Positions 14,333 to 54,160 of a stretch of 64,000 bases of DNA are shown here, piece by piece; position 1 is the stretch's first letter; every line of letters starts with the position of its first letter. This DNA comes from Phycisphaerae bacterium. GTDB taxonomy: Bacteria; Planctomycetota; Phycisphaerae; UBA1845; Fen-1342. The position numbers and the translations under genes were made by a program. Location: NCBI GenBank assembly GCA_963675745.2, contig CAXXWX010000016.1, forward strand, positions 64,001-128,000, given 5' to 3'. The notes under the pieces were generated by a model, which did not search any database, was not told the DNA's origin, and saw only the letters and a list, made by a program, of their open reading frames with translations.

Positions 14333-17158
14333 ATGATTCGCACGGTTGTCACCATCGCCGCCGTAGCCGCTGTGCTGGCATCAACGGGCATCGCAGCGGC
14401 CGAGCCTCGTCCGGACACGCCCGCCGTCGTGGCGGATGGTTTCGAGCATTACGAGGTGCCAGCCGATCCGTACCTGCCCCCCGCGCCCAATCCGCGCGGA
14501 CCACACCGGGCGTCGCAGTGGGTCCGTGACGGCTATGTCAGCATTCAGGTCAACGTGGATGAATTCGGCAACAACATCCCCAACGATGCCGCCAATGAGC
14601 CGTCGATCGCCGTCAACGCCATTGATCCGGACAACATCGTGATTGCCTGGCGTCAGTTCGATAACATCGCCAGCAACTTCCGCCAGGCGGGCTATGCCTA
14701 CACGCTCGACGCCGGCCAGACCTGGATCTTCGATTGGCCGCTCGAAGCGGCGGTGTTCCGCTCCGACCCGGTTCTCGACTCGGACGGCGACGGGAATATC
14801 TACTACAACAGCCTCTCGCACCCCGATGAATTCGTCTGCACCGTGTTCAAGACGTCCGACGGTGGCCAGACGTGGGACGACGGCACATTCGCCGCCGGCG
14901 GCGACAAGCAGTGGATGGCCATCGACAGATCCGACAGCATCGGCCGCGGACACATCTACGCCTTCTGGACGCAGTGGTTCAGCAACTGCCAGCCCGGCCA
15001 CTTCACGCGCTCCACCGATGGCGGCCAGTCATACGAGGCCTGTGTCGAGGTGCCCGGGCAGCCGGCGCGCGGCACGATCGCCGTCGGTCCGGATGGCGAG
15101 GTATATGTCGCCGGTGAGGGCGTTATCGTGGCCCGCTCAACGACCCTGCGCGACGCCGGCACGACGGCCGCATTCCAGGGCGTCAACTATGTCGATCTTG
15201 ACGGCGACATCCCGCCGTATGGAGGTCCCAATCCCGCCGGTTTGCTGAGCCAGGTCTGGGTTGCGGTCAACCATTCCGACGGTCCGAACCGCGGCCACGT
15301 GTATGTCGTCAGCGCCGTGGACCGCGACAGCACAACCGACCCGGCCGACATCATGTTTGCGCGCAGCACCAACGGGGGCGTCTCCTGGAGTTCGCCCGTG
15401 CGGGTTAACGACGACTCCGCGTGGAATGGTGCCTACCAGTGGTTCCCCACGCTCTCGGTGGCGCCAAACGGGCGCATCGACATAACCTGGAATGACACGC
15501 GCAATGACCCCGGCGGATACGATTCCGAAGTGTACTACTCCACCTCGCATGACGGCGGCTTGACGTTTTCACCCAACGTCGCCGTCAGTCCCGCTTTCGA
15601 CCCCCACCTGGGCTGGCCCCAGCAGAACAAGATCGGCGACTACACACACGCCGTCTCCGACAACGATGGAACCTCGCTGGCCTACTCCGCCACGTTCAAC
15701 GGCGAGGAGGATGTCTATTACCTGCGGATTCCCGCGCCCTGCTCGGACGCCGGCGACCTCCGCATCGATCGACCGAAGTACGCCTGCGACGGAAACGTCG
15801 CCATCGTATTGTATGATTGCGGCCTCAACACCAATGACGGAGTCACCGAGACGGCCGCCGTGACGATTTCTTGCGAGAGCGAGCCGGGCGGCGAGAGCGT
15901 CGTGCTCACCGAGACCGGCCCGGATACCGCCCGCTTCACCGGCCAGATCGCGCTCAGCACCAGCGACAGCGCCGGGGTTCTGCACGTGGCCGAATTCGAC
16001 ACGATCACCGTGCTCTATACAGACGCCGACGATGGGCTCGGGCACCACAACGTTGCGGTCACGGTTGACGCGCCGGTCGATTGCACCCCGCCGCTGGTCA
16101 GCGCGGTGAATGTCACCGACATAGAGCCTGACAGCGTTGTCGTTCACGTCGACGCCGACGAGCCGATCAAACCACTGGTCTCGTACGGACCGGCTTGCGA
16201 TGCGTTGAATGACACGGCGACAATCAAGCAGTTCTATGCCGCGAGCGACGTGCCGCTTACCGGATTGGAGCCCGGCGCGACCTACCGGTTTATGGTGGAT
16301 AGCGCGGACGAGGCCGGCAATGTCTTCGCCGACCCGACCTGCTATGAGTTCACCACGACGGCCGTACCCGACTACTTCACCGAGTTGTTCGACGGAAACG
16401 ACAACGACCTGGACTACACGCAACTTACCTTCCAGCCCGACGCCAGTGAGAGTTTCTACGCGGGCTGCGCCGCGCAGATTGCCGAGCTCCCGACCGATCC
16501 GGCCGGCGGCACGATCCTGCCGGCGGTTGATGACTTCTATTCGATCGCTGATCTGGTGGATGGAAAGACGGTCTCGCTCTACGGCCACGCATACTCGCGC
16601 TTCTACATCGGCGGCAACGGGTATCTTACGTTTTTCTCGGGACAGACCGATGCCGACGAGACTCTGGCCAAGCACCTGGGCCAATTGCGCGTCTCCGGTT
16701 TGTATGATGATCTCGATGCAAGTGCCGGCGGCTACATAACCTGGAAACAGCTCGACAACCGGGCCGTAATCACCTACGTCAATGTTCCGGAAAAGGGCGC
16801 GGGTGGCGACAACACCTTCCAGATCGAGATGTTCTTCGACGGGAAGATCACGCTTAGCTATCTCAACATCGATGCGCAGGACGGCCTCGCCGGACTTTCG
16901 CGCGGCGGCTACCCCTTTGATGACTTTTTCATGAGCGATCTCTCGGAGCTTGGCTCCTGTGATGCGACCGGGGACACTAATTGCGACGGGTTGGTCAACA
17001 ACGGCGACATCGATGCGTTCGTGCTGGCCCTGAACGACCCCGCCGAGTACGCGGTTCAGTATCCCGGCTGCGATATCAACAATGCTGATACCAACGGCGA
17101 CGGGCTCGTCAACAACGGCGACATCGATGCGTTTGTCGCCCTGGTTTCATCGAAGTAA
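14333..17158 (+). CDS. Secreted Asp-box (sialidase-like) beta-propeller + Ig/FN3-like + nidogen-like domain + dockerin-like tag (paralog A)
   Basis: SD ggag and ATG 14333; repeated S/TxDGGxT/SW Asp boxes; C-terminal GDTNCDGLVNNGDID twice. Confidence 0.8.
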   Translation: MIRTVVTIAAVAAVLASTGIAAAEPRPDTPAVVADGFEHYEVPADPYLPPAPNPRGPHRASQWVRDGYVSIQVNVDEFGNNIPNDAANEPSIAVNAIDPDNIVIAWRQFDNIASNFRQAGYAYTLDAGQTWIFDWPLEAAVFRSDPVLDSDGDGNIYYNSLSHPDEFVCTVFKTSDGGQTWDDGTFAAGGDKQWMAIDRSDSIGRGHIYAFWTQWFSNCQPGHFTRSTDGGQSYEACVEVPGQPARGTIAVGPDGEVYVAGEGVIVARSTTLRDAGTTAAFQGVNYVDLDGDIPPYGGPNPAGLLSQVWVAVNHSDGPNRGHVYVVSAVDRDSTTDPADIMFARSTNGGVSWSSPVRVNDDSAWNGAYQWFPTLSVAPNGRIDITWNDTRNDPGGYDSEVYYSTSHDGGLTFSPNVAVSPAFDPHLGWPQQNKIGDYTHAVSDNDGTSLAYSATFNGEEDVYYLRIPAPCSDAGDLRIDRPKYACDGNVAIVLYDCGLNTNDGVTETAAVTISCESEPGGESVVLTETGPDTARFTGQIALSTSDSAGVLHVAEFDTITVLYTDADDGLGHHNVAVTVDAPVDCTPPLVSAVNVTDIEPDSVVVHVDADEPIKPLVSYGPACDALNDTATIKQFYAASDVPLTGLEPGATYRFMVDSADEAGNVFADPTCYEFTTTAVPDYFTELFDGNDNDLDYTQLTFQPDASESFYAGCAAQIAELPTDPAGGTILPAVDDFYSIADLVDGKTVSLYGHAYSRFYIGGNGYLTFFSGQTDADETLAKHLGQLRVSGLYDDLDASAGGYITWKQLDNRAVITYVNVPEKGAGGDNTFQIEMFFDGKITLSYLNIDAQDGLAGLSRGGYPFDDFFMSDLSELGSCDATGDTNCDGLVNNGDIDAFVLALNDPAEYAVQYPGCDINNADTNGDGLVNNGDIDAFVALVSSK

Positions 17159-17290
17159 CGATCGCGCTGCCGGGCCGCGGCGGCTGACGTTCTCGTTGCT
17201 CGTTTCGACCGGCTGAAAGCCGGTCCCACAGGTTTCTTGACCGGGCGGAAGCTGGTCTGACAGCTATGACGTTTGCCGAGGAGCGACGAG

Positions 17291-17785
17291 ATGAGGTGTA
17301 TTGACGCGGTTCGGGCATTGCTTCTGATTGGCGTGGCCTGTGCTTTTGTGGGGTGCGATCACGGCGGGCGCCAGGCGCCGGCGGTTGATAGGCCCGATAA
17401 CACAGAGACCATCGAAGAATTCTGGGCCGACGGCACGCCAAAGCTGCGCGAGACCGTCGTCCGTGCCCCCGACGGCACCATCATCCACCACGGCCGCTAC
17501 CAACGCTGGCACCCAAACGGCAAGCTCGAGTACGAGACCACCTTCGTCCACAACCGCAAGGACGGTACGGCGACGCGCCACCATAAGAATGGCGGCAAGT
17601 GGACCGAGGAACACTATGTGGACGGGGAGAAAAACGGCGTCTGCCACACCTGGGACGAAGGCGGCAACCTCCGGCAGGAACGCGTGTTCTGTGGTGGTCG
17701 ACCGTGTGGCACCTGGACAACCTGGAAGGCCGATGGCACCGTCAAAGCCGTGCAGACCTTTGAGGACGTCACTTTCCAACCGTAG
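17291..17785 (+). CDS. MORN-variant repeat (YwqK-like) lipoprotein
   Basis: SD gaggag; lipobox AFVGC; repeats HGRYQRWHPNGKL, DGTATRHHKNGGK, NGVCHTWDEGGNL. Confidence 0.8.
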   Translation: MRCIDAVRALLLIGVACAFVGCDHGGRQAPAVDRPDNTETIEEFWADGTPKLRETVVRAPDGTIIHHGRYQRWHPNGKLEYETTFVHNRKDGTATRHHKNGGKWTEEHYVDGEKNGVCHTWDEGGNLRQERVFCGGRPCGTWTTWKADGTVKAVQTFEDVTFQP

Positions 17786-18033
17786 TCCGCGGCGTCGGCA
17801 CTCACGCGCCAGCAGGCCGCAGCGCCGGGCGCCTCGTCCCGGCGCCGGACCGTCGATTCTTGTCGTGTCCGCTTTGCAGGAACGTTATGATGGGGTGAAA
17901 TGCAGCAGCGCAGTGCGACGGACAAGGCCTGCCGGAGGGGTGAGCCAACCAAGCATTGACCGATAAGCACCTATGAGCAGGTTCGGCGAAGTGCGCGGGC
18001 GCCGGCCTCGGCGGCGTACCAAAGGAGCACCGG

Positions 18034-20841
18034 ATGCAGCGGACGATTTTTGGCTTGCTAGCTACGCTAACACTCGCCTTCACACCCTTCAACGCAGCAG
18101 CTAACCAGCCCAGCCAACCCATTGCGGCACCTACCCACCACGAGGCCCCAACCGATCACGCGCCTGTCCAGCAGGCACCCGCCGTACGCGCGACAACGCC
18201 GGCGGCGTTGATTGTGCGCGACGATTACGTCAGCGTGCAGGTCAACGTGAATGAGAATGGTGAGAACATCGTCGGCGATGCCGCCAACGAACCGACACTG
18301 GCGGTGAACCCGGTCTTCCCCAACCGGATGGTCATCTGCTGGCGCCAGTTCAACACCAAGACCAGCAACTTTCGCCAGGCCGGAAACGCCTATACCGAAG
18401 ACGGCGGGCAGACCTGGACATTCCCCGGCGTGATCGAGCCAACCATCTTTCGTTCCGACCCGGTGCTCGACGTTGATGCCGGCGGCAACTTCTTCTTCAA
18501 CAGCCTGGGTGACGGTTTCGTGTGTACGGTCTTCAAGTCCACGAACGGCGGCGCGACCTGGGGGCCGGGAGTGTACGCGTACGGCGGCGACAAGCAGTGG
18601 ATGATCATCGACAAGTCCGGCGGAATCGGACAAGGCAACATTTACGCCTATTGGTCGGTCAGCTCCAGCGTCTGTGCGCCCGGACACTTCACACGCTCGA
18701 CTGACGGCGGCGAAACTTATGAGCCCTGCCGGGCGATTTCCGGCACACCCATGTGGGGCACGATGGCGATCGGCCCCGAAGGCCAGCTCTATATCGTCGG
18801 TCGCGGCTTCACCGTCACCCGGTCGAACAACGCCCAGAATCCGGCACAGACGCCAAGTTGGGACTTCTCGCGATTCGTCGATCTTGACGGTGACGTCTCC
18901 GGCTTCGGCGGTCCAAACCCGGACGGGCTCGGTGGCCAGGCCTGGATCGCCACCGACGTATCCCAGGGGACAAGTCGCGGCAATGTCTACGTGCTGGCCT
19001 CGGTGGAGCGCAACTCCACGGCGGACCCGCTGGATGTGATGTTCTCGCGCAGCACGAATGACGGCTGGACCTGGAGCAGTGAGGTCCGGGTCAACGACGA
19101 CTCGACCAGCAATGGTGCCTACCAATGGTTCGGCACCATGTCCGTCGCGCCCAACGGCCGCATCGACGTTGTCTGGTACGACACGCGCAACGATCCCGGT
19201 GGATACGACTCCGAGGTGTACTACACCTATTCGAGCGATACCGGCCAGACATGGGCACCCAGCCAACCGCTCACACCCGCTTTTGACCCCCACCTCGGCT
19301 GGCCCGCGCAGCAGAAGCTGGGCGACTACATCCACATGGTCTCGGATCTGACCGGCGCCAATCTGGCGTACGCCGCGACATTCAACGGTGAACAGGATGT
19401 TTACTTCATTCGCATCCCCGCGCCGTGTATTGACGCCGGCCACGTGGAGCTCGATCGCCCGCAGTACGCCTGCGACGGGACCATGGTCATCCGCGTGTAC
19501 GATTGCGGCCCGAACGCGAGCGACACGACCATCGATACGACGACGCTGACGGTTGTATCGGATACCCAACCCGGCGGTCAGGCCGTGCTGTTGACCGAGA
19601 CGGGAGTCGATACCGCCATCTTCGAAGGCACGCTGACACTAAGCACCGGCGGCGGCGGCGGGACACTGCAAGTCAGCAGCGCCGACGCGCTGACTGCCCG
19701 CTATACCGATGCCAACAACGGCCAGGGAAGCCAGAACGTGTTGCTCGAAGCCACTGCCACTGTCGATTGCGCACCGCCGACGGTGAGCAATGTGCAATCT
19801 ACTGTCGACGAGCCCGGCCTGGCGACGATCACCCTTGAGACCGACGAGGAGGCGCTGGGGGTCGTCCACTATGGCCTGGCGTGCGACGCGCTGGATCAGA
19901 CCGCCGTCGGTTTTCAGTATGGCGTGCAGAACACCGTCCTGATCCAGGGGCTGGAGTCTGACCGGACGTACTTCTATATCGCCGATGCCGAGGACCATGC
20001 TGGCAATGTCGGCACCGAGGGAATCTGCCGATCGTTCGTCAGCGCCCACCAGCCGGTTTATTTCACCGAGTTGTTCGAGGCGGCGGACAACGATCTCGAT
20101 GACACGCGCATCGTGTTCACACCAAACGGCGGCCCCGACGGCTACAGCGCTTGCCTGACCGCGATAACTGAGTTGCCGAGCGACCCCGCCGGCGGCACGG
20201 CCCTGCCCGCGGTCGATGATTTCTACACGATCGCCAATCTCAGTGATGAAAAGACCATCCCGTTTTACGGCACCAACTACTCGCGGTTCTACATCGGCGG
20301 TAATGGCTACGTGACATTCAGCTTCGGTGACACATCCGCCGAGGAATCGCTGGCACTGCATTTCCAGCGGGCACGCATCTCGGCGCTGTTCGACGATCTG
20401 GATCTCAGCGCCGGCGGCAGCGCGAGCTGGAAGCAATTCGCCGATCGCGCCGTGGTAACATTCCTGGATGTGCCGGAAAAGGGCCTCGGTGGGACAAACA
20501 CCTTCCAGATCGAGCTATACTTTGACGGCACGATCAGCATCAGCTATCTGACAATTGACGCCACCGATGGCCTGGTCGGCTTGTCGCGCGGCAACAACCC
20601 CGCCTACTTCCTCGAGACCGACGTCTCGGCCATCGGACCGTGCTTCTTCCTGGGCGACCTGAATTGCGACGGGCTTGTCAACAACGGCGATATCGATGCG
20701 TTCATACTGGCGCTTAATGATCCCGCCGCCTATGCAATCACGTACCCCGCGTGCAACATCGACGCCGCGGACTGCAACCAGGACGGCTTGATCAACAATG
20801 GTGACATTGACTCGTTCGTCGGGTTGCTGGCCGCACCTTGA
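18034..20841 (+). CDS. Asp-box sialidase-like + dockerin-like protein (paralog B)
   Basis: SD aaggag; signal peptide; same architecture as 14333-17158. Confidence 0.8.
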   Translation: MQRTIFGLLATLTLAFTPFNAAANQPSQPIAAPTHHEAPTDHAPVQQAPAVRATTPAALIVRDDYVSVQVNVNENGENIVGDAANEPTLAVNPVFPNRMVICWRQFNTKTSNFRQAGNAYTEDGGQTWTFPGVIEPTIFRSDPVLDVDAGGNFFFNSLGDGFVCTVFKSTNGGATWGPGVYAYGGDKQWMIIDKSGGIGQGNIYAYWSVSSSVCAPGHFTRSTDGGETYEPCRAISGTPMWGTMAIGPEGQLYIVGRGFTVTRSNNAQNPAQTPSWDFSRFVDLDGDVSGFGGPNPDGLGGQAWIATDVSQGTSRGNVYVLASVERNSTADPLDVMFSRSTNDGWTWSSEVRVNDDSTSNGAYQWFGTMSVAPNGRIDVVWYDTRNDPGGYDSEVYYTYSSDTGQTWAPSQPLTPAFDPHLGWPAQQKLGDYIHMVSDLTGANLAYAATFNGEQDVYFIRIPAPCIDAGHVELDRPQYACDGTMVIRVYDCGPNASDTTIDTTTLTVVSDTQPGGQAVLLTETGVDTAIFEGTLTLSTGGGGGTLQVSSADALTARYTDANNGQGSQNVLLEATATVDCAPPTVSNVQSTVDEPGLATITLETDEEALGVVHYGLACDALDQTAVGFQYGVQNTVLIQGLESDRTYFYIADAEDHAGNVGTEGICRSFVSAHQPVYFTELFEAADNDLDDTRIVFTPNGGPDGYSACLTAITELPSDPAGGTALPAVDDFYTIANLSDEKTIPFYGTNYSRFYIGGNGYVTFSFGDTSAEESLALHFQRARISALFDDLDLSAGGSASWKQFADRAVVTFLDVPEKGLGGTNTFQIELYFDGTISISYLTIDATDGLVGLSRGNNPAYFLETDVSAIGPCFFLGDLNCDGLVNNGDIDAFILALNDPAAYAITYPACNIDAADCNQDGLINNGDIDSFVGLLAAP

Positions 20842-20864
20842 CACGGGAGAACCAGGGCAACCAT

Positions 20865-23681
20865 ATGTTTGGACAACTACTCGGCGCTGCGGCGATAACC
20901 ATCATTCTGGCTCAGGTTGGCTCAGCGCAGGCGGACCGGCCGCAGACCGCCCCCCCGCCGGACGGCCACGTCGAGTTTCCCAGTGACGCGCCGCTGCCCG
21001 GAGTGATCCAGCAGGAAAGCGCGCCGGCGAAGGTGTGGCGTTCGCGCGACGGCTATGTCAGCGTGCAGGTCAATGTCAGTGCCGGCGGCGCCAACATCAC
21101 AAACGACGCCGCCAATGAGCCCTCGCTGGCGGTTGATCCGACCAATCCCAACCGCATGGTCATCGGCTGGCGCCAGTTCAACAATATTGCCAGCAACTTC
21201 CGCCAAGCCGGCTACGGTTACACGACCGACGGTGGCCGAAGCTGGACGTTTCCGGGCGTAATCGAGCCGGGCGTGTTTCGCTCGGACCCGGTCCTGGCCG
21301 CCGATGCCGAAGGCAACTTCTATTACAACAGTCTGACCGCCAACGGCGGCCAGTCTGAGTTCTGGTGTCATGTCTACAAATCCACCGATGGTGGTGCGAC
21401 CTGGGACGCAGGCACATACGCCTATGGCGGCGACAAGCAGTGGATGGTGATCGATACGACCGACAGCGTTGGCCGCGGCAACATCTACGCCAATTGGACG
21501 CGCAGTTACAGTGCGTGCCTGGGCTCTTTCACGCGCTCCATCGACAACGGCCAGAGTTTCCAGCCGTGCCTCCAAGTGCCGGGTCTGCCGCATTGGGGAA
21601 CAATGGCGATCGGACCTGATGGCGAGCTTTATATCGGCGGTGGTGGCTTCGTGGTCGCCAAGTCTTCAAACGCCAAGTATGACGCCCAGGCGATTGCCTG
21701 GGACTTCTCGACCATCGTCGATATGGATGGCCTCATCGCCTATGGCGGTGGCCCCAATCCCGACGGCCTGCTCGGCCAGGCCTGGATCGCGGCCGACCGG
21801 TCCGACGGCCCCACCGCCGGGAACGTATACCTGCTCTGCTCAGTCGCGCGCGACTCAACGCCCGACCCGGCCGATGTCATGTTCATCCGCAGCACCGACG
21901 GCGGCCAGACCTGGAGCAGCCCCACCCGCGTCAACGACGACCCTTCAACCAGTGCCTTTCAATGGTTCGGCACCATGTCCGTGGCTCCCAATGGCCGCAT
22001 CGACGTCGTCTGGCTTGACACGCGCAACGACCCGGGAGGATACGATTCCGAGTTGTACTACTCGTTCTCCGAGGACGGCGGCCTCACCTGGGCGGCCAAC
22101 CAGGCGCTCTCACCGGCGTTCGATCCCCACATCGGCTGGCCCCAGCAAACCAAGATGGGCGACTACTTCCACATGATCTCGGATCTTCACGGCGCGGACC
22201 TCGCATACGCCGCCACGTTCAACGGCGAGCAGGACGTCTACTACCTGCGCATTGGTGAGCGCTGCGAAGATGCCGGCAGTATCACGCTTGTACAAGACGT
22301 GTACGGCTGTGAAGACCTGCTCGAGATATCGGTCAACGACTGCGGGTTGAACATCGATCCCAACGGCATTGACACGGTCCAGGCCACCGTCATGTCTGAT
22401 ACGGAGCCCGCCGGCGAGGCCGTCACGCTCAATGAGACCGGCGTCTACACCGGTATTTTCACCGCAACGTTGCCGCTCAGCGTCACGGACAGCGTGGGCG
22501 TGCTTCAGGTCGCCGGGGGTGATGCGGTAACCGCCGAGTATATCGACGCTGATGACGGCGCCGGCGGCCATAACATCCTCATGACCGCTTCCACCAACAT
22601 CGACTGTACGCCGCCGGTGATCACGAATGTCGGCGTGTCGGTTGTGGATTACGAGACGGCCTTGGTTACGTTCGACACCTCCGAGCTGGCGCGCGGCACG
22701 GTGCGGTATGGCGCCGATTGCGGCAGTCTCGATCACCCCGTCGTTGGCACCGAGACGGCCCTCAATCACAGCATCAATATCGGCGGGCTGTACCCCGATG
22801 AGACGTACCACTTCGCGGTCGAGGCCAAAGACATGTTCGGCAATGTGGGCTACGAAGGTGGCTGTTACTCGTTTACGACCGACGCGGTGCCAGATTACTT
22901 CACGGAGATCTTCGAGGAGAATGACAACGATCTGGACTATTTGCGGTTGAACTTCCTGCCGGACGGCAGCCAGAGCTACTACGCCGGTTGTGCCCGGCCA
23001 ATCGCCGAGCTTCCCACCGATCCGGTCGGCGGGACCATTCTGCCGGCGGTCGATGATTTCTACACGATTGTTGACCTGGCGGATGGGAAGCTGGTCTCGA
23101 TCTACGGTCACGCCTATTCCCGCTTTTACATCGGCAGCAACGGATATATTACGTTCGTTGGCGGGCAGAACGACGCGCTGGAATCGCTGGCCAAGCACCT
23201 GAGCCAGGTGCGCATCTCCGGCTTGTATGATGATTTCGACGCGAGCGCCGGCGGCTACATCACGTGGAAGCAGCTCGACAATAGGGCCGTGGTCACCTAT
23301 GTCGACTTGCCGGAAAAGGGCCTCGGTGGCAGCAACACTTTTCAGATCGAGATGTTCTTCGACGGGGAAATCACACTCAGCTACCTCAACGTCGACGCAC
23401 AGGACGGTTTGGCGGGACTGTCGCCCGGTGGATATCCGATTGAGGACTTCTTCATGAGCGATCTGTCCGACCTTGGTCCCTGCAACATCATTGGCGACAC
23501 GAATTGCGACGGCGTGGTCAACAACGGTGACATTGACGCTTTCGTGTTGGCCCTCGGCGACCCCGACGGCTACGCCGCGGCCTTCCCCGACTGCGACATT
23601 AACGCGGCTGACTGCAATCAGGACGATATCATCAACAACGGCGACATTGACTCGTTTGTCGAGTTGCTCGCCGCACCTTGA
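20865..23681 (+). CDS. Asp-box sialidase-like + dockerin-like protein (paralog C)
   Basis: ATG 20865 begins the signal peptide MFGQLLG; same architecture. Confidence 0.8.
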   Translation: MFGQLLGAAAITIILAQVGSAQADRPQTAPPPDGHVEFPSDAPLPGVIQQESAPAKVWRSRDGYVSVQVNVSAGGANITNDAANEPSLAVDPTNPNRMVIGWRQFNNIASNFRQAGYGYTTDGGRSWTFPGVIEPGVFRSDPVLAADAEGNFYYNSLTANGGQSEFWCHVYKSTDGGATWDAGTYAYGGDKQWMVIDTTDSVGRGNIYANWTRSYSACLGSFTRSIDNGQSFQPCLQVPGLPHWGTMAIGPDGELYIGGGGFVVAKSSNAKYDAQAIAWDFSTIVDMDGLIAYGGGPNPDGLLGQAWIAADRSDGPTAGNVYLLCSVARDSTPDPADVMFIRSTDGGQTWSSPTRVNDDPSTSAFQWFGTMSVAPNGRIDVVWLDTRNDPGGYDSELYYSFSEDGGLTWAANQALSPAFDPHIGWPQQTKMGDYFHMISDLHGADLAYAATFNGEQDVYYLRIGERCEDAGSITLVQDVYGCEDLLEISVNDCGLNIDPNGIDTVQATVMSDTEPAGEAVTLNETGVYTGIFTATLPLSVTDSVGVLQVAGGDAVTAEYIDADDGAGGHNILMTASTNIDCTPPVITNVGVSVVDYETALVTFDTSELARGTVRYGADCGSLDHPVVGTETALNHSINIGGLYPDETYHFAVEAKDMFGNVGYEGGCYSFTTDAVPDYFTEIFEENDNDLDYLRLNFLPDGSQSYYAGCARPIAELPTDPVGGTILPAVDDFYTIVDLADGKLVSIYGHAYSRFYIGSNGYITFVGGQNDALESLAKHLSQVRISGLYDDFDASAGGYITWKQLDNRAVVTYVDLPEKGLGGSNTFQIEMFFDGEITLSYLNVDAQDGLAGLSPGGYPIEDFFMSDLSDLGPCNIIGDTNCDGVVNNGDIDAFVLALGDPDGYAAAFPDCDINAADCNQDDIINNGDIDSFVELLAAP

Positions 23682-23702
23682 GATTGAGAAAAGGCTGACG
23701 AC

Positions 23703-26525
23703 ATGTTTGAGAGAATTCTCGGCGTTGCAATGATCGTCGCGCTCCTGACACAGGTTGGCCCCGCGCAAGCCGCACGCGTCGACGGAATGAAGGCCGGCCC
23801 GCCGCCGGACGGTCACGCCGAGGCCCCCAATGATGCGCCGTTGCCGCCTGCGCCGCAGCGCGAGACCACCCCCGCGAAGGTCCTGCGTTCGCGCGACGGA
23901 TATGTCAGCGTGCAGGTCAATGTCAGCGCCGGCGGCGCCAACATCACAAACGATGCCGCGAACGAGCCCTCGCTGGCGGTTGATCCGACCAATCCGAGCC
24001 GCATGGTCATCGGCTGGCGCCAGTTCGACAACATCGCCAGCGACTTCCGCCAGGCCGGCTACGCCTACACCAGCGATGGTGGGCAGAGCTGGACGTTCCC
24101 GGGGGTGATCGAGCCGGGCGTGTTTCGCTCGGACCCGGTCCTGGGCGCCGATGCCGAGGGTAACTTCTACTACAACAGCCTGACCGCCACTACCGACCTG
24201 TCTGACTTCTGGTGCCACGTTTACAAATCCACCGACGGCGGTGCGACTTGGGATGCCGGCACGTATGCGTATGGCGGCGACAAGCAGTGGATGGTGATCG
24301 ACACCACCGACAGCGTCGGCCACGGCAACTTCTACGCCTACTGGACGCAGTGGTACAGTACGTGCTATCCCGGTTTCTTCACGCGGTCGATCGACAACGG
24401 CCAGAGCTTTCAACCGTGCATCGAAGTTCCGAACTCGCCGCAGTGGGGCACGCTCGCGATCGGCCCCGACGGTGAGGTGTACATCGGCGCCGAGGGCTTC
24501 ATTGTCGCCAAGTCGTCAAACGCCAAGTACGACGCCCAGGCGGTTACCTGGGACTTCTCGACGGTAGTCGATCTCGACGGCTCCATCGCCTATAGCGGCG
24601 GTCCCAACCCCGGTGGTCTGCTCGGCCAGGCCTGGATTGCCGCCGACCGATCCGACGGCCCCACCGCCGGGAACGTGTACCTGCTCTGCTCGGTCTCGCG
24701 TGACTCAAACCCCGACCCGCTCGATGTCATGTTCGCCCGCAGCACCGACGGCGGTCAGACCTGGAGCAGTCCGGTGCGCGTCAATGACGATCCCGGCACC
24801 AGCGCCTACCAGTGGTTCGGTACCATGTCCGTGGCGCCAAACGGTCGCATCGACGTAATCTGGCTCGACACGCGCAACGATCCGGGCGGTTACGACTCCG
24901 AGCTGTATTACTCCTTTTCCGAGGATGGCGGCGTGACCTGGTCCGCCAACGAGGTGCTTTCCCCCGCGTTCGACCCGCACGTCGGCTGGCCCCAGCAGAA
25001 CAAGATGGGCGACTACTTCGACATGACCTCGGACAACCAGGGCGCCGATCTGGCATATGCCGCCACTTTCAACGGCGAGCAGGACGTCTATTACCTGCGT
25101 ATCGGCGACCGTTGTGCCGATGCCGGCCGCATAACGCTCGCACAAGACCTGTACGCGTGTGAAAGCGTGATTGACATCTCGGTCAACGATTGTGGCTTGA
25201 ATCTCGACCCCAACGGTATCGACACGGTTGAGGTGACGGTTGTTTCCGGCACCGAGCCGGCCGGTGAGACAATCACTCTCGATGAAACCGATGTATTCTC
25301 GAGTATCTTCTCGGGCACGCTGCCATTGAGCGTCACGAACAGTGTGGGGGTGCTTCAGGTTGCTGAAGGCGACACCATCACAGCCGAGTACATCGATGCT
25401 GACGATGGCGCCGGCGCTTACAACGTCCTGGTCACGGCGTCGGCCGACATCGACTGCACCCCACCCGTGATCACAAACCTGGTGGTCGCGGACGTCGGAT
25501 CGCGCACAGCATTGATTACGTTTAATACATCCGAGTTAGCGCGCGGCACGGTGCGGTATGGCGCGAACTGCGGCAGTCTCTATCAAACCGCCGTCGGCAC
25601 GGATACCACGCTCGCGCATGAGATCGCCATCGGCGGGTTGAATCCGGGGCAGACCTACTACTACGCCGTCGAAGCCGATGACATCGCCGGCAACGTGGGT
25701 TACGAGGGCGGTTGTTACTCGTTCACCACCACCGCCGTGCCGGAATTCTTCAGCGAGCGGTTCGATCCATCCGGCAATGACCTTGGTTACCGCCGGATCA
25801 CTTTCACACCGGATGGCGGGATCAGCTACTACGCCGCGTGCATCGAGACGATCTCCAGCCTGCCGACCGATCCGAACGCCGGCACCGAAGTGACGCTCGA
25901 TGATGACAATTACTCGCTGATCACGATGGGCGGGTTGGATACGGTGTCGCTGTACGGCGTCAGCTACAACCACTACTACATCGGAGCGAACGGCTACCTG
26001 ACGTTCACCCAGGGCGACACGGACTATACCGAGTCGTACGACGACCACTTCGACACGCCGCGCATCTCGGCACTTTTTGACGATCTCTCGCCGCAGTACG
26101 GCACCGTGCGTTACCAGCAGTTAGGCGATCGTGTCGCCGTCACGTGGCAGGATGTGCCGGAATGGAACACGAGCAACCAGAACACGTTCCAGATCGAGAT
26201 GTACTTCGACGGTCGCATCACGCTGAGCTATCTGGCGATCGCGGCCGTTGACGGTCTGGTCGGCCTGTCCGCCGGTGGCGGTGCCGATCCGGGCTTCGAC
26301 GCGACCGACCTCTCCGCGTTGGGCGGATGCCTGATCGTCGGCGATGCGAACTGCGACGGCATGGTCAACAACGGCGACATCGATGCGTTCGTGCTGGCAG
26401 TCAGCGACCCGACCGGTTACGCCGCCGCGTATCCGGGTTGTGACATCAATACGGCCGACTGCAACGGTGATGGCGCGATCAATAACGGCGACATCGATGC
26501 GTTCGTGGCGCTGATTTCAGGCTAA
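23703..26525 (+). CDS. Asp-box sialidase-like + dockerin-like protein (paralog D)
   Basis: Signal peptide; same architecture; N-terminal part very similar to paralog C. Confidence 0.8.
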   Translation: MFERILGVAMIVALLTQVGPAQAARVDGMKAGPPPDGHAEAPNDAPLPPAPQRETTPAKVLRSRDGYVSVQVNVSAGGANITNDAANEPSLAVDPTNPSRMVIGWRQFDNIASDFRQAGYAYTSDGGQSWTFPGVIEPGVFRSDPVLGADAEGNFYYNSLTATTDLSDFWCHVYKSTDGGATWDAGTYAYGGDKQWMVIDTTDSVGHGNFYAYWTQWYSTCYPGFFTRSIDNGQSFQPCIEVPNSPQWGTLAIGPDGEVYIGAEGFIVAKSSNAKYDAQAVTWDFSTVVDLDGSIAYSGGPNPGGLLGQAWIAADRSDGPTAGNVYLLCSVSRDSNPDPLDVMFARSTDGGQTWSSPVRVNDDPGTSAYQWFGTMSVAPNGRIDVIWLDTRNDPGGYDSELYYSFSEDGGVTWSANEVLSPAFDPHVGWPQQNKMGDYFDMTSDNQGADLAYAATFNGEQDVYYLRIGDRCADAGRITLAQDLYACESVIDISVNDCGLNLDPNGIDTVEVTVVSGTEPAGETITLDETDVFSSIFSGTLPLSVTNSVGVLQVAEGDTITAEYIDADDGAGAYNVLVTASADIDCTPPVITNLVVADVGSRTALITFNTSELARGTVRYGANCGSLYQTAVGTDTTLAHEIAIGGLNPGQTYYYAVEADDIAGNVGYEGGCYSFTTTAVPEFFSERFDPSGNDLGYRRITFTPDGGISYYAACIETISSLPTDPNAGTEVTLDDDNYSLITMGGLDTVSLYGVSYNHYYIGANGYLTFTQGDTDYTESYDDHFDTPRISALFDDLSPQYGTVRYQQLGDRVAVTWQDVPEWNTSNQNTFQIEMYFDGRITLSYLAIAAVDGLVGLSAGGGADPGFDATDLSALGGCLIVGDANCDGMVNNGDIDAFVLAVSDPTGYAAAYPGCDINTADCNGDGAINNGDIDAFVALISG

Positions 26526-44625: not shown

Positions 44626-45948
44626 TCACTCGCCGTCTGACGCGACATCACTCTGGAATGGCATGGCGGGTTGAACCGGCAGTGAAAACTCGCCGCTCCA
44701 GAAAGCATCCCGTTCCCAATCGCGCAGCGCCAGCTCTTCGTCGCTTGACACACGGATGGACCAGTCTCCCCACGCACCGTCCGACGCGGCCAGCTTGTCG
44801 GCCAGCCAAGCCGGACGGTTCATCGTGGGCATGTGGAAATAGGCTTCAGTCCGCGACAGCCGCTCGAAAAGCGCATCCGCCGGATCGTTCGCGAATACCA
44901 GCCCGCGGCGCGCACTGCCGTTCGAGATCCAATGGCCTGGCGGCACGCGGCACGCGGGAATCAGCGAACTGTGAATGCGCGACCATGCCACAGACTCTCC
45001 ACGGTGCATGAGATCCCACCGCACACACAGGCTGACATCGTCCGGCCACGCGCCGGGCTCCAGGGCAATCCAGATCAGCGCAACGACCGCTGCCCAATGT
45101 GGCGTTTCGTCGTCAGGCTCCATACGCCGAACCACAACTGCGGTGTTGTCACGCAGCAATCGCAGCAACTCCGGCGAGCTCCGCGCCTGGATCGCATCCG
45201 ACGTGTGAGCCACCGCTGTGACGGGGATGTCGGCGACACCGGTCCAGGTGTTAGTCATCGAGGTCAATGGGCCCACGGCGCAGTTGAACCGCACGCTTCT
45301 TGATTCAGCGGCGATAAACGTCCTGCCGTACTCCGATCGCAGTGACGAGTACCTCACTCGCTGTCCGGCCGCCGTGAAAACGGACTCGGGCTTGGCGCTG
45401 ACCGTCCAGGGCGACAGGTCGTGAACCTCGAAGTGGAAAGGCACATCGACCGGCCAGCGGTCACGAGTCCTGATGATCCCCTTTCGCTGAAACAGGTAAC
45501 GCCATTGGTGATCGGAGAGCGTGCGGCTGGAGAGTTCATGCGTTATGGGGGGGTTTTGTGGGACGACGCTCACCGGCGCGTGATGTTCATAGGCCATCGG
45601 GACGAACCAGAGCAGCACATCGGTCGGTACGATCGACAGCCAGCCGTCACGCCTGATTTGCGGGGTGAGGTACAGTGCCCCTGCGGCGAGCACGAACATG
45701 CAACCGGCAGCCGCCATGCGCCAATAGCGGCCTGTGCGGTGCAGTTGCCGCTCGCGGCCGGCGTCGAAGCCGCACTCGGAGCAACGCAGTCCGGGTGTTC
45801 CGCGCATATCGTAGCCACAGCGTGGGCACCGCCGCCAGCCACGCGGGCGATCCCACAGCAATGCGCGATAAAGCACATACGCGCCGACGAGCAGCAGCAT
45901 CCCCGCGACAGGCCAGACCACCCAGATGTTGTCGAGCCAGGTGAGCAT
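44626..45948 (-). CDS. Membrane protein with double CxxC zinc ribbon, unknown function
   Basis: TM - RCPRCGYDMRG...CSECG - TM; ATG 45948. Confidence 0.7.
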   Translation of the reverse strand: MLTWLDNIWVVWPVAGMLLLVGAYVLYRALLWDRPRGWRRCPRCGYDMRGTPGLRCSECGFDAGRERQLHRTGRYWRMAAAGCMFVLAAGALYLTPQIRRDGWLSIVPTDVLLWFVPMAYEHHAPVSVVPQNPPITHELSSRTLSDHQWRYLFQRKGIIRTRDRWPVDVPFHFEVHDLSPWTVSAKPESVFTAAGQRVRYSSLRSEYGRTFIAAESRSVRFNCAVGPLTSMTNTWTGVADIPVTAVAHTSDAIQARSSPELLRLLRDNTAVVVRRMEPDDETPHWAAVVALIWIALEPGAWPDDVSLCVRWDLMHRGESVAWSRIHSSLIPACRVPPGHWISNGSARRGLVFANDPADALFERLSRTEAYFHMPTMNRPAWLADKLAASDGAWGDWSIRVSSDEELALRDWERDAFWSGEFSLPVQPAMPFQSDVASDGE

Positions 45949-46022
45949 CAGGGAATTGTACCGGAAGGCGCTTGCCGCGGTGGCAAGTTGCCGGGAGTTC
46001 ACGCCGCACTGCCGGGCTTGAC

Positions 46023-46050
46023 GTAACGGCCGACGCCTCGTCGGCCGTCG
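46023..46050 (+). repeat. GTAA palindromic REP-like element
   Basis: gtaacggccgacgcctcgtcggccg. Confidence 0.7.
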
Positions 46051-46162
46051 CTGTCAGCGCGTGCCGCGCTCGCTCAAAGCGGCGGCCACGACGCGGGCGC
46101 TTGCCGGGAGTTCAACCCGCGCGGCCTTTGGTGAAGTTGCGCAGACGCCAGCAACCGGCGAC

Positions 46163-47768
46163 GATGGGCGACAATCTGCGCGGCGGTCATAGTCACGCGG
46201 CGCCGAGCCACCTACGATCGCGCGTGAAGAGCAAGCGAAGCAGAAAGCGTCGCGGGGAGTCCGCCGACCTCTCCGCGTGTCTCCGATGGGCGCGCGAATA
46301 TCTTCCTGATTATTTCACCGACGACCCGTGCCAGTTCCACCGCGAGCTGGTGCGCGACCTTCAGGACTCGCGCAAACGCCTGATCGCCCGCGTGGCTCCG
46401 CGCGGTCACGCCAAGAGCACCTGTAGCGCCTTCGCATACCCCCTGTGGTGCATCTGCCAGCAGTTGCGCCGGAACATCGTGATCATCACCCACGAAACCT
46501 CACTGGCCACACAATTCGTACGCGACATTCGGGGCGAGCTCGAGTGCAACGAGCGGATTCTGGAGGAGTACGGCGACCTCTGCAGCGACGAGGCGGCAGC
46601 CGATGACCGATCGGGGGTTACCCCTTCCGACCGTCCCGCCAAACAGCAGCAGACGAAAGCGACACAGCGACCTAAGCGCGCTGCCAAACGGCGACGAACC
46701 TGGTCACAGACCAAGTTCACGACGACGACCGGGATCACAGTGCAGGCCAAGGGCACCGGTGCCAGCTTCCGCGGCGCGCGCGTCGGTCCACATCGGCCCG
46801 ATTTGATCGTCTGCGACGATATCGAGAAAGATGAGCACGTCGAATCGCCCGAGGGACGCCGCAAGCTCGAACATTGGTTGCGACGCGTGGTCATGCCGGC
46901 CCTGGCGCCGGATGGGCAGCTGCTCGTGCTGGGATCGATCATCCACTACGACTCACTGCTCGCGAATCTGCGTGACAAGCAGCGGTTTCCGCGCTGGGAC
47001 TACCGGGTCTACCGCGCCCTCGAGGCCGAGCAGCAGACGGATGGCACGTATCGTCGTGTGGCATTGTGGCCGGCGCGCTGGCCGGTGGAACGGTTGGACA
47101 TCGAGCGCGAGCGCGTCGGCACGCTGGCGTTCGAGCAGGAATACATGGCCAACCCGATCGATGACACCATCCGCGTGTTCCGCCCGGAGTGGCTGCGGCG
47201 TTACGAAGACGCCGAGCTGCCCGGGAAGCGCGCCGTGACTCTGATGGCCGTCGATCCGGCCACCGGCGTCAGCGGCGGCGACTACTTCGCGCTCTGGGTT
47301 GGCGACCTCGATCCAAACACGGGCGTCATCTTCACCCGCCGGCTCACGCTGGACCGCATCGGCGTTGTGCAGCAGATCAAACGCATCATCGCCGCGTTCG
47401 ACGAGTGGCACCCGATGAGGATAGGGATTGAAACCGTTGCGTATCAGGTCGCGCTCAAGGAAATCCTCGAGGAAGAAAGCCGCAAGCGCGGCCTGTACAT
47501 GCCGATCGTGTCGCTCCAGACAACGGCGAATAAACGCGCCCGCATCGAAGGTAGCTCGACGTTTTACGAGAACGGTATGTTCCGATTGCCGCCACAGCTT
47601 GACCCGGAAATCGAGCGCCAGTTTCTGCACTTCCCCAAGGCCCGCCATGACGATGCGCCCGACGTATGCGCGATGGGCATCGAATTGGCGCGAGCACTGC
47701 GCGGCGGACTGGGTGTCGATGGCACCATCGGCGGAACGAATCCGTTTGCGCGCAACGGCGGATGGTGA
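46163..47768 (+). CDS. Phage-type terminase large subunit (ATPase + RNase H-like nuclease)
   Basis: Walker A APRGHAKST, RG.R...RPDLIVCDD Walker B, FEQEYM, nuclease MAVDPA/GDY, IGIE, FPKARHDDAPD. Start uncertain (ATG 46163 or GTG 46224). Confidence 0.88.
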
Positions 47769-48013: not shown

Positions 48014-48385
48014 ATGCCAAGCGGCGCGCAACTCAGCATTGACACGATAGAGGATGTGACCGTTGTGAGCTTTGAGGACACGCGGATTCTCGGGACGGTG
48101 CAGATCGAGGCGATCAAGTCCGAGCTGAACCGTCTGGTAACAGAGCGCAAATGCCAGAAACTCATCCTCGAGTTCAGCCGAGTGCAGTTTCTGGCATCGT
48201 CGGCGGTCGGGGCACTCCTGAACCTGCAGAAACAGAGCTCGGCGATCAAGGGAACGCTGGTCATCAGCGGGCTGAAGGACAAGCTGCTGAAGATCTTCGA
48301 GATAATGAAGATCAAGAAGCTCTTTACGTTCTGTCCTACGCTGGACGAGGCCCTGCAGCATTTCGGACTTAGCGAATCGGCTTAG
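48014..48385 (+). CDS. STAS-domain anti-sigma-factor antagonist
   Basis: LEFSRVQFLASSAVGALL...IFEIMKI; SD gaggag. Confidence 0.9.
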   Translation: MPSGAQLSIDTIEDVTVVSFEDTRILGTVQIEAIKSELNRLVTERKCQKLILEFSRVQFLASSAVGALLNLQKQSSAIKGTLVISGLKDKLLKIFEIMKIKKLFTFCPTLDEALQHFGLSESA

Positions 48386-48585: not shown

Positions 48586-49242
48586 ATGTTGTCTGCGTTT
48601 TCACGGCGTGTTTTACTGAGCGGGCTCGTGTGCCTCCTGGGGGGCAGCGTCAGCTTTGCGGAACTCAGCCAGGTTTCCGTGTTCCTCGATCAGTCGAACG
48701 AGTTCGCCGACGGCCAGATGTACGGGCGTGTGGACGTGACTGCGAATTCGCAAACCGGCGTCGTGAGCTTCCATGTCGAGGCGTTTTCCAATCCCGAGTA
48801 TGACGTGCCTGGGTGGAACCAGGGTTTTGACAGCTTTGGGTTCAACTTCAGTGGAATTGCCGACCGGGTCTGGACCTGGTCGTGGTCGAAGCCTACCAAC
48901 TGGATCAGCCGGACGAACCGGCGCCAGGATGGCTTTGGGCTGTTCGACATCATCATTCAAAAGGGGCCCGGCGGCAGTCGCCAAGAGCCGCTCGACTTTG
49001 AGTTTACCCTCCCGAATGCCAGCGATGCCGTGGTCAGCAATTTCATCGACCTGTCGCGTGACCAGGCCGACCAGGGCAACCAGGTCTTCGCAGCCCACTA
49101 TGCCGGATTTAACGCCGGCGACTCGGTTTCCAGCCACTTCATTGGCGGCTCGACGCCGCACGTTGTCCCCTTGCCAAGCGCCCTGTTGCTGGGCGGCTTT
49201 GGGCTATCCCTTGTCTGCCGTCTACGGCGCCGCCTGGCCTAG
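48586..49242 (+). CDS. Secreted protein with VPLPA/PEP-CTERM-like sorting tail
   Basis: Signal peptide; DGFGxFD; C-terminal VVPLPSALLLGGFGL..RLRRRLA. Confidence 0.8.
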   Translation: MLSAFSRRVLLSGLVCLLGGSVSFAELSQVSVFLDQSNEFADGQMYGRVDVTANSQTGVVSFHVEAFSNPEYDVPGWNQGFDSFGFNFSGIADRVWTWSWSKPTNWISRTNRRQDGFGLFDIIIQKGPGGSRQEPLDFEFTLPNASDAVVSNFIDLSRDQADQGNQVFAAHYAGFNAGDSVSSHFIGGSTPHVVPLPSALLLGGFGLSLVCRLRRRLA

Positions 49243-49441
49243 CCGGCAACCAACTGACGCCGCTGTCTCCCCACCGGCGCGCACCACCCCGAAAAATGCC
49301 CGATAAACCCTCCGGGGAAAATACGTATTTGCTTTGGCGGGCGGCCTATCCACGGTATTATGGACTCGGCAGGCTCGTAGGGTCCCGGGTGTGGCCTTTC
49401 GGAAGATGTCCGTGCATCGTCGTGATTTTAAGGGGAAGATT

Positions 49442-50098
49442 GTGAGCCCATCACTTCCACGCAGATTCCTCGTCGTCGGCTTGATTTGCACGCTTGGCGC
49501 CGCCATCAGTGTTGCGGGCTTCAGCGAGATGTCGATCTTCCTTGATCAGTCGAACGAGTTCGCGGACGGCCCGAGCTATGGCCGTGTGGACATCACGGCT
49601 GATTCCACCACCGGTCTGGTCACATTCCATGTCGACTCGTATACGGTTGCCGACTACGTCAGCCTGAGTTCGAACGCCGGCTTTCAGACCTTTGGCTTCA
49701 ACTTCACCGGAGTCAGCGATCCGGTGTCGGCGTGGAGCGACTGGTCGCGCCCGAGCGGTTGGGGCGTGCACACGAACTCAAACCAGGACGGTTTTGGAGA
49801 GTTCGACGTCGTCCTGAGCGGCAATGGCGGCAACCGCGTTGAGTCGATCGAGTTCGAGTTCAAGCTCCCCGACGCCAGCCAGGCCGTAGTTGACAACTTC
49901 ATCGATTTCTCACATGACTCGGCGGGCCAGGGCAACGTCTTCTTTGCGGGCCACTACGCCGGCTTCACCGGCACCCCGGGCAGCAATTACATTGGCGGCA
50001 GCAAGATCGTGCCGCCTCAGGTTCCGATACCAGGGGCAGCGCTGTTGGGGGCCATTGGGTTGTCGGTCGTGTGCGGGATTCGTCGTCGGCTAGCCTGA
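49442..50098 (+). CDS. Tandem paralog with PEP-CTERM-like sorting tail
   Basis: Shares FLDQSNEFADG..YGRVD, FGFNF, QDGFG.FD and QGN.FFA.HYAGF-like motifs; tail VPIPGAALLG...RRRLA; GTG 49442. Confidence 0.8.
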   Translation: MSPSLPRRFLVVGLICTLGAAISVAGFSEMSIFLDQSNEFADGPSYGRVDITADSTTGLVTFHVDSYTVADYVSLSSNAGFQTFGFNFTGVSDPVSAWSDWSRPSGWGVHTNSNQDGFGEFDVVLSGNGGNRVESIEFEFKLPDASQAVVDNFIDFSHDSAGQGNVFFAGHYAGFTGTPGSNYIGGSKIVPPQVPIPGAALLGAIGLSVVCGIRRRLA

Positions 50099-53300: not shown

Positions 53301-53526
53301 GATGCTGGAAAAGCCGCGGCCAGTAGCGGCTGCTGGGCCCGCGCCGACTACCAATGGCCACTTCGTCCGCCTGATGGTGGGATGACCACGCTTTGCATGG
53401 TACGATGGCGCGGCACCGGCGCGACCGCGCTTGTGCCGGGCACGTTCCGCCGTGTGGGTTGATGCTCTGGCGTGGTCCGCGCGGCGAATCATGTGCGAGC
53501 CACTCTACCGGCGGAGAGGACGCGGG

Positions 53527-53832
53527 ATGAGCTCACGACCCCTTGGCATATCAGCAGACCGAGTGGCGGACTTCTGCCGACGCCACCGTATTCGCAAGCT
53601 GTCCTTGTTCGGCTCGGTGCTGCGCGACGATTTCCGCCCGGACAGCGACGTGGATGTGCTCATCCAATTCGAGGCGGGGCACGTGGTCGGCCTCGACATC
53701 ATGGACATTGAAGAGGAGCTGTCGCAGCTTCTCGGTGGCCGCAAGATCGACCTGGTCAACGAGAAATACCTGAATCGGCGTTTGCGCTCCCGTATTCTGG
53801 CCGAAGCCCAGGTGCAATATGCCCAAGGATGA
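53527..53832 (+). CDS. Minimal nucleotidyltransferase (MntA-like antitoxin)
   Basis: FGSVLRDDFRPDSDVD matches GSX10DXD. Confidence 0.92.
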   Translation: MSSRPLGISADRVADFCRRHRIRKLSLFGSVLRDDFRPDSDVDVLIQFEAGHVVGLDIMDIEEELSQLLGGRKIDLVNEKYLNRRLRSRILAEAQVQYAQG

Positions 53833-54160
53833 CTCCATATACGTCGGGCACATGCTCGACACCGCCAGGCTGGCCGCTGCAAAGGTGGCGGGCATCACGC
53901 GCGAAGCCTTCGATGCGGATGAGAATCTTCGGCTGGCACTGGCCCACCTGATCCAGACCATAGGCGAAGCGGCCCGTCAGGTCTCACCCGGTTTTCGCAA
54001 AGTCCATCCGCAGGTCCCATGGAACAAAGTCATCGGCATGCGCCACCGCGTGGTGCATGACTACCTTCACGTGGACTACGACATCGTGTGGGGCGTCGTG
54101 AGCATCGATTTACCCCAGTTGATCGAGACCCTGGCGGACATCCTGCCGGCTGGGCAATAG
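53819..54160 (+). CDS. HEPN/DUF86 RNase toxin (HepT-like)
   Basis: IGEAA, VPW, RHRVVHDY (RX4HXY); overlaps the MNT gene. Confidence 0.92.
   Translation: MPKDDSIYVGHMLDTARLAAAKVAGITREAFDADENLRLALAHLIQTIGEAARQVSPGFRKVHPQVPWNKVIGMRHRVVHDYLHVDYDIVWGVVSIDLPQLIETLADILPAGQ

Follow-up and report, generated by a model that had tools for sequence, protein, structure and literature searches.

The window, i.e., the whole 64,000-nucleotide stretch of DNA that was analyzed, derives from a genome (G000) belonging to a Phycisphaerae family designated here as f1, and carries on its forward strand an open frame (45972-47768) encoding an intact phage terminase large subunit (TerL) of the phrog_38, D3112-class type. 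The initial annotation of this DNA, made from the sequence by eye, had described an uninterrupted TerL at 46163..47768; the stop-free frame of 534 amino acids was confirmed, but its ATG lies one base later (46164..47768), and both the gene caller and an orthologue from the same genus indicate that a GTG at 46224, giving a protein of 514 amino acids, is the likelier start. Profile searches matched the protein to the phrog_38 terminase large subunit (E 8e-93) and to PF17289 (E 3e-5, spanning residues 361-505), and two NCBIfam terminase models matched below their cut-offs. All of the motifs named in the initial annotation were located: the Walker A sequence APRGHAKST (residues 78-86, 46395..46421), LIVCDD within the Walker B motif and catalytic glutamate LIVCDDIE (residues 214-221, 46803..46826), the nuclease acidic residues D364 in VDPA and D373 in GDY (47250..47282), and the nuclease motif HDDAPD (residues 495-500, 47646..47663). 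Among 23 aligned TerL sequences, A78-T86, D218, D219, E221, D364, H495, D496, D497, P499, and D500 are invariant, and D373 is kept in at least 90%. An AlphaFold2 model (pLDDT 82.8) resembles terminase structures, with pLDDT below 50 in a low-complexity insertion of the ATPase domain (residues 147-167, 46602..46664) that differs in length among orthologues. Judged from the sequence and this model, TerL is a two-domain enzyme, with an N-terminal P-loop ATPase and a C-terminal RNase H-like nuclease whose catalytic residues are intact. The protein terminates in a tail ending F-A-R-N-G-G-W (47730..47765), a candidate portal-docking peptide considered below.

The flanking genes are as originally described, a divergent membrane protein with a CxxC, zinc-ribbon-like motif (44626..45948, reverse strand; no Pfam or PHROG match) and a STAS gene (48014..48385, forward strand; E 8e-15). 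Both are host genes in a neighborhood that is not conserved, and fall outside the system discussed here. The region upstream of TerL (45988..46114, forward strand) contains a 14-base direct repeat (45988-46001 and 46101-46114) found in only these two copies in the genome, and no CTAG-N5-CTAG palindrome was detected in 45500-46300. GC content is flat across the window, and the impression of host-like codon usage was substantiated, with TerL at the 31st percentile for dicodon score and the 46th for GC3 among 2808 genes, compared to the 5th-10th and 2nd-5th percentiles, respectively, for three genes belonging to a satellite-like element (contig C18). The initial annotation had recognized no other phage genes in the 64 kb, and a BLASTP comparison of 1355 phage ORFs with the 3949 proteins of the genome likewise returned TerL as the sole match in the window; TerL is also the only match to a TerL query in the 5.2-Mb, 28-contig genome. 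Elsewhere in the window are a tandem array of four large secreted proteins (14333-26525; 875-941 aa) with a common N-terminal motif, a tandem pair of paralogous secreted proteins with PEP-CTERM-like ends (48586-50098), and small nucleotidyltransferase-like and HEPN-like genes (53505-54160) that by eye resemble an MNT-HepT type toxin-antitoxin module.

Strong TerL orthologues were found in 23 of 24 sampled f1 genomes, and a profile search extended this to 70 of 72 f1 genomes, including all 46 of high quality. Each of the 70 has one locus, with one match in 68 and two partial pieces in 2, which answers the check for single-copy orthologs in related genomes proposed in the initial annotation; a single internal TGA falls within the match in two TerL rows. 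The two genomes without a match (G024 and G303) have fragmented assemblies and contain the portal gene described below. TerL thus belongs to the core gene set of a single Phycisphaerae family, and because nearly every member retains it, it is not debris. Among 16 genomes from other families of the order, only G040 holds a relative (36% identity), beside a recombinase; this locus (L053, 7281-12832) encodes a TerL of the same class (28-36%) with ParB-methylase, HTH, and serine recombinase genes, and head genes are absent nearby. Across 1.8 billion representatives, members of the TerL clade are at least 56% identical and everything else is at most 42% identical. The best matches outside the clade reach 36-42%, with no close phage relative; the nearest viral contig is 36% identical, and the nearest cultured phages, which are Mu-like (D3112-like), are 29-31% identical. 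Close homologs inside complete prophages, which would have indicated a simple remnant, were not present among those searched. In the loci compared (25 + 9), the neighbors of TerL are host genes that vary between genomes, except in G017 and G258.

Codon-model estimates of omega were 0.115 for TerL and, for genes of the head operon described below, 0.138 (portal), 0.098 (capsid), 0.144 (adaptor), and 0.145 (decoration), compared to 0.110 and 0.044 for the host controls yqgF and rpoC; all of these values are approximate because dS and third positions are near saturation. The TerL value of about 0.12 indicates purifying selection, as had been anticipated for a maintained gene. Agreement of TerL with the species tree, another of the proposed checks, was only weak within f1. 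Relative to the RpoB+RpoC tree, TerL differed by 131 log units (random trees, 197) and a five-gene operon alignment by 73 (random trees, 345), and relative to the RpoB tree the ratio to random trees was 0.67 for TerL, 0.33 for the portal, and 0.21-0.28 for RpoC pieces. The TerL tree is closer to the operon tree than to the RpoB tree (52 vs 84). The poor fit to the species tree could result from exchange of TerL within f1 or from a poorly resolved, star-like tree. Two further measures were discarded: rate covariation between TerL and portal (rho 0.66) is non-specific, as the host control yqgF gives 0.58 and 0.76, and AU tests are not diagnostic of congruence, as RpoC itself is rejected against RpoB.

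The initial annotation had proposed that unlinked head genes be sought, and these are present in the same genome. On a different contig from TerL, between host genes, lies an intact Mu-type head operon (C19:242505-249498, reverse strand) whose first six genes encode a Mu portal, a GNAT acetyltransferase, a Mu protease I, a decoration protein (phrog_1731), the major capsid protein gpT, and a gp36 adaptor; the portal (PF06074, E 5e-73), protease (PF10123), capsid (PF10124), and adaptor (PF07030) stand in phage order. Genes 7-11 encode a 107-aa protein, a 95-aa membrane/coiled-coil protein with weak matches only, a 99-aa protein, a lipoprotein, and a two-helix membrane protein. Gene order is conserved among f1 operon loci, with the small genes sometimes lost or duplicated. 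The GNAT, which is conserved and not of phage type, is placed after the portal or fused to it; in G017 (L132, 4125-6377) the two form one 750-aa reading frame, and long portal frames were also seen in G171 and G258. The two-helix protein is weakly similar to holins (E 0.008-0.06), and in a G011 prophage a 52% identical homologue is encoded just ahead of the terminase genes. The 107-aa protein is predicted to form a jelly roll (pLDDT 94.8) resembling small phage proteins, with XepA as the best match (Z 10.6, rmsd 2.7, 99 aligned residues) followed by YomS (Z 8.4), both at 9-10% identity (see PMC6834076); its function is not deducible from the fold, because viral cement, turret, and lectin folds score nearly as high (Z 8-9.8). 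In the ESM Atlas, the 107-aa gene matches unnamed viral proteins and the 99-aa gene has no match.

The portal was found in 66 of 72 f1 genomes. Three of the six misses (G009, G297, and G315) reflect operons cut by a contig end, one (G198) is a real loss, and the others are G305 and G313. G198 (7 contigs, 99%) keeps TerL and its upstream CTAG site, described below, while the head genes are gone; its TerL has lost the G-G-W that closes the tail and deviates at 8 of 136 conserved sites. A mid-contig remnant in that genome (L400, C1:2527165-2528226) consists of the 99-aa, lipoprotein, and holin-like genes only.

Several observations tie TerL to this operon. In two genomes, G017 and G258, TerL stands directly upstream of the portal, and in phages a D3112-class TerL is a natural partner of a Mu-type portal. 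In sister families, a different, Mu gp28-type TerL directly precedes the portal in 13 of 16 genomes, and this type was matched in only 1 of 25 f1 genomes, within a prophage. The two enzymes are unrelated at the BLAST level, yet the sister-type TerLs end in L-x-F-A-R-x-G-x-W and those of f1 in N-P-F-A-R-x-G-G-W. A 12-position tail profile trained on 21 sister-type TerLs only ranks the TerL of G000 first among 3949 proteins, and scores above 5 were obtained for 33 of 120 family homologues but for none of the outside relatives in sets of 134 and 84; a terminal W is present in 118 of 120 family homologues compared to 3 of 134 outside relatives. The TerLs of T3, lambda, SPP1, and P22 bind the portal through the C-terminus, according to PMC13595956.

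A further tie lies in the upstream DNA. In an unbiased gapped-word search (~310,000 words), the regions preceding TerL and those preceding the portal shared their highest-ranking words, namely CTAG-N5-CTAG, the first half of which overlaps, by eye, a TAGACA-like -35 hexamer 17 bases ahead of a -10 hexamer, an overlap that suggests a candidate operator. A DNA profile trained on portal sites gave scores of 12 or more ahead of TerL at 16 of 44 loci (these include at least one same-genome pair, and the TerL site of G017 is also the operon's site), compared to 0.36% of 3941 host genes; the site is not present at the remaining 28 TerL loci, that of G000 included. The top-scoring site in G000 is that of the portal, at 17.6 when left out of training, and in genomes outside the training set the site was found before TerL in G302, G314, and G315 and before the portal in G077, G243, and G314. 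An SOS (LexA) regulon was considered and set aside, with recA scoring -0.3 for the site in the one genome inspected (G000), as were a candidate regulator (C3:103368) found in only 6 of 72 genomes and a perfect site (C26:546980), treated as chance because it coincides with a stop codon within a tandem array. A sigma-70 family factor gene (C19:253917-254690), located 4.4 kb away from the operon, scores moderately for the motif (13.7) and is not a conserved neighbor.

Among 30 loci listed, the CTAG site also precedes a third, unlinked gene in three genomes, its upstream DNA having been inspected in four. This single-copy gene encodes a protein of 174 aa, occurs in 24 of 25 f1 genomes, with a weak match in 1 of 16 others, and shares 31-34% identity with the C-terminal portion of a fibre-like gene within the operon of family f20 (E 4e-10); it has no Pfam or PHROG name and no viral contig match. 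In G000 (C15:361561-362082, reverse strand) it has a weak site (7.1) and a frame change near its start, which from the sequence is either decay or an assembly error.

The initial annotation had raised the possibility of a dispersed packaging system, and this was corroborated for portal, protease, capsid, and adaptor, but not for a small terminase (TerS), tail tube, or tape measure. PF11985 (TerS) was found in 0 of 25 f1 genomes and a custom TerS alignment matched in 0 of 72, although the same query missed a candidate TerS of the G011 prophage. The HK97-type portal PF04860 and the Mu F pilot protein PF04233 were not found in G000. The tape-measure family PF10145 was detected in neither G000 nor G004, with sub-cut-off matches in 3 of 5 genomes, most of them 11-20 kb from lambda-type terminases, and a prophage tail-tube query, run with no positive control, matched in 0 of 5 genomes. 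No G, endolysin, or Mu transposase was found with the queries used, several of which had no working control, and no replication, integration, or transposition genes occur beside TerL or the operon in the neighborhoods examined. Profiles of 13 sister-operon genes gave no credible match in G000, a match at C26:424084 being a signal-peptide host protein; these blanks are soft, because the c12 profile missed the third gene, which was found later. With no tube, tape measure, Mu F, or endolysin found, a delivery route is missing, and the only delivery-related genes identified are the adaptor, the jelly roll, and the fibre-like remnant.

Of 41 genomes from the order, 35 contain the portal, and among 251 genomes of the class, strong capsid matches were found in families f1, f2, f6, f7, f20, and few others. 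The operons of f20 and those resembling f7 gain terminator-, hub-, and fibre-like genes, still with no tube or tape measure; at five loci in f6, f7, and f10 (L206, L204, L146, L149, and L203), a gp37-like gene of ~280 aa is followed by hub-like and fibre-like genes, again with no tube or tape measure, and in G058 of f20 (L197, 1962-4704), as in G066, TerL is split into ATPase and nuclease genes before a related head-and-tip operon. In the portal tree, host families form clades and a tailed phage is placed between f1 and the others, and a single origin of f1 and f2-f11 was neither demonstrated nor rejected (35 of 63 portal rows used; p-AU 0.28). In f1, capsid and decoration cluster with phi3LM21-like phages and the portal with sister-family operons, indicating that the f1 operon is a mosaic or a separate domestication. 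The differently trimmed sister versions, with their other TerL (split in f20) and tube-less tip genes, may be separate domestications. Relatives also contain tailed Mu-like and lambda-like prophages, and the real Mu-like examples carry TerS, neck, tube, and tape measure. Several relatives share a conserved cluster of lambda-type prophage head genes (L056-L060) that includes a 750-aa terminase and varies in copy number.

The f1 system, judged by its genes, resembles gene transfer agents (GTAs) such as RcGTA, BaGTA, and VSH-1 in being a host-encoded, phage-derived head and motor retained across a lineage under purifying selection, with no replication or integration genes nearby and with parts at several loci, apparently under one regulator. 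It differs from RcGTA in its Mu-type portal, protease, and capsid, in a D3112-class TerL that is not P22-related, in the lack of any detected tail tube, tape measure, or TerS, and in its Planctomycetota host. An RcGTA type (Rhodogtaviriformidae) was rejected on the Mu-type head, the absence of a PF04860 match in G000, and the D3112-like nearest cultured TerLs. Compared to the head module of Mu-like phages (Mu gp28/29/I/T/36; D3112), f1 shares portal, protease, capsid, and adaptor in order but has an inserted GNAT and an unlinked motor, and no transposase, TerS, F, G, tube, or tape measure was found in it with the queries used; a Mu-like prophage was rejected because transposase, TerS, and tail genes are not contiguous with the head genes. 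Capsid-forming phage satellites (cf-PICIs) similarly encode a motor, portal, protease, capsid, and adaptor with no tail, but the f1 genes have no adjoining integrase, primase, or TerS, are fixed family-wide in single copy, and specify a Mu-type rather than HK97-type head. A cf-PICI-type satellite was likewise rejected, as no integrase, replication module, or TerS accompanies the head genes and presence is not patchy. The f1 jelly roll precedes holin-like genes as in the Bacillus PBSX/SPbeta lytic cassette (XepA, YomS), although PBSX has a tail.

Based on the data presented above, i.e., adjacency in two genomes, the complementary TerL of the sister families, the common tail, the common CTAG site, and the third gene, TerL very probably belongs with the operon, as the motor of the head encoded on C19. 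Given that f1 retains TerL together with tail-less head genes, often with a common control signal, it is probable that such bacteria assemble DNA-filled capsids of their own. If TerL is the motor, use of the particles for gene transfer is marginally favored, and gene transfer in itself is about evenly balanced. The favored reading, at even odds, is that TerL is the motor of a host-domesticated, tail-less, GTA-like, Mu-derived head system distributed over at least three loci. This corresponds to the first alternative of the initial annotation, a dispersed, inherited packaging system, which is strengthened by the unlinked head genes, the single locus in nearly all f1 genomes, the low omega, and the lack of a close prophage relative. 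The fullest version, a Planctomycetota GTA with a Mu-derived head, a TerS-free motor, parts at three or more loci, and its own operator, delivering host DNA with no tail of its own, is somewhat less likely than not to be correct as a whole.

Such a system would be held off by a dimeric regulator bound to CTAG-N5-CTAG over the -35 region. Upon release, the portal, protease, decoration, and capsid proteins would assemble into proheads, TerL would dock onto the portal through its F-A-R-x-G-x-W tail and, with no cognate TerS, might fill the heads with host DNA non-specifically, and the holin-like and lipoprotein genes would free them. The filled heads could then carry DNA from cell to cell in a GTA-like manner, perhaps with tails borrowed from phages or by means of surface jelly-roll and fibre-remnant proteins, the most speculative of these steps. 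In PMC7947584, GTAs are described as packaging host DNA using a TerL of headful origin.

A literature search, with supplements and subscription papers outside its scope, returned no description of such a system, and to our knowledge only a small number of GTAs are known, all of them tailed. A packaging system reduced to a head and fixed throughout a family, with a motor that has been relocated yet remains co-regulated, would widen the range of domesticated viruses, and raises the question of how packaged DNA enters cells with no tail. Because its motor is unlinked, searches for prophages and GTAs that rely on gene clusters miss it. Two precise experimental handles are provided by the tail peptide and the operator, and the single-contig genomes of the order (G287, G084, and G129) make it possible to complete the parts list.

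Among the alternatives to a gene transfer system, the strongest, although unlikely, is a defensive one, in which a phage-induced machine hampers the assembly of related phages by soaking up tails and mis-packaging host DNA, or the holin-like cassette kills the cell, with any transfer being incidental. The absence of tail genes, as in capsid-forming satellites, the tailed prophages of relatives, and the retention of TerL and membrane genes without heads in G198 are consistent with this. However, defense genes are usually patchy in presence and clustered in islands, while the f1 genes are near-universal and positioned among housekeeping genes, and TerL is not a dead decoy, since every catalytic residue is kept.

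Less probable still is that the heads are compartments for DNA storage or release (e.g., for protection during dormancy, as a source of extracellular DNA, or as biofilm public goods) rather than delivery vehicles. The conserved GNAT would fit such a role, as would the fact that every domesticated version examined has lost the tail, pilot protein F, and neck G. Against it, the gp36 adaptor, the fibre-like remnant, and the holin-like genes have been kept under common regulation, and genes resembling terminator, hub, and fibre persist in sister families.

The second alternative of the initial annotation, a terminase co-opted on its own, has become less likely, with G198 still speaking in its favor. 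That TerL is a stand-alone host ATPase/nuclease (e.g., in repair or DNA remodeling), with only a historical tie to the operon, is improbable: although G198 keeps TerL, the TerL of G000 has no upstream site, the TerL tree is less species-like than that of the portal, and its presence is slightly wider (70/72 vs 66/72), the portal-type tail and upstream site are kept in many lineages, sister families hold TerL fixed before the portal, and the TerL of G198 is itself degenerate in its tail and altered at conserved sites.

Lastly, an ordinary prophage remnant, or a motor belonging to the C18 element, can be largely dismissed as very improbable, for despite a phage origin with Mu-like closest cultured relatives, and despite the C18 element having a TerS and no TerL, the gene is intact, occurs family-wide under purifying selection with host-like codons, and is separated by an identity gap from all else, and the C18 element has foreign codon usage and a different head lineage. 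This satellite-like element (C18:1-8400, L116) encodes an integrase, a primase/helicase, a P27-type TerS, and an HK97-type capsid, with no TerL or portal seen.
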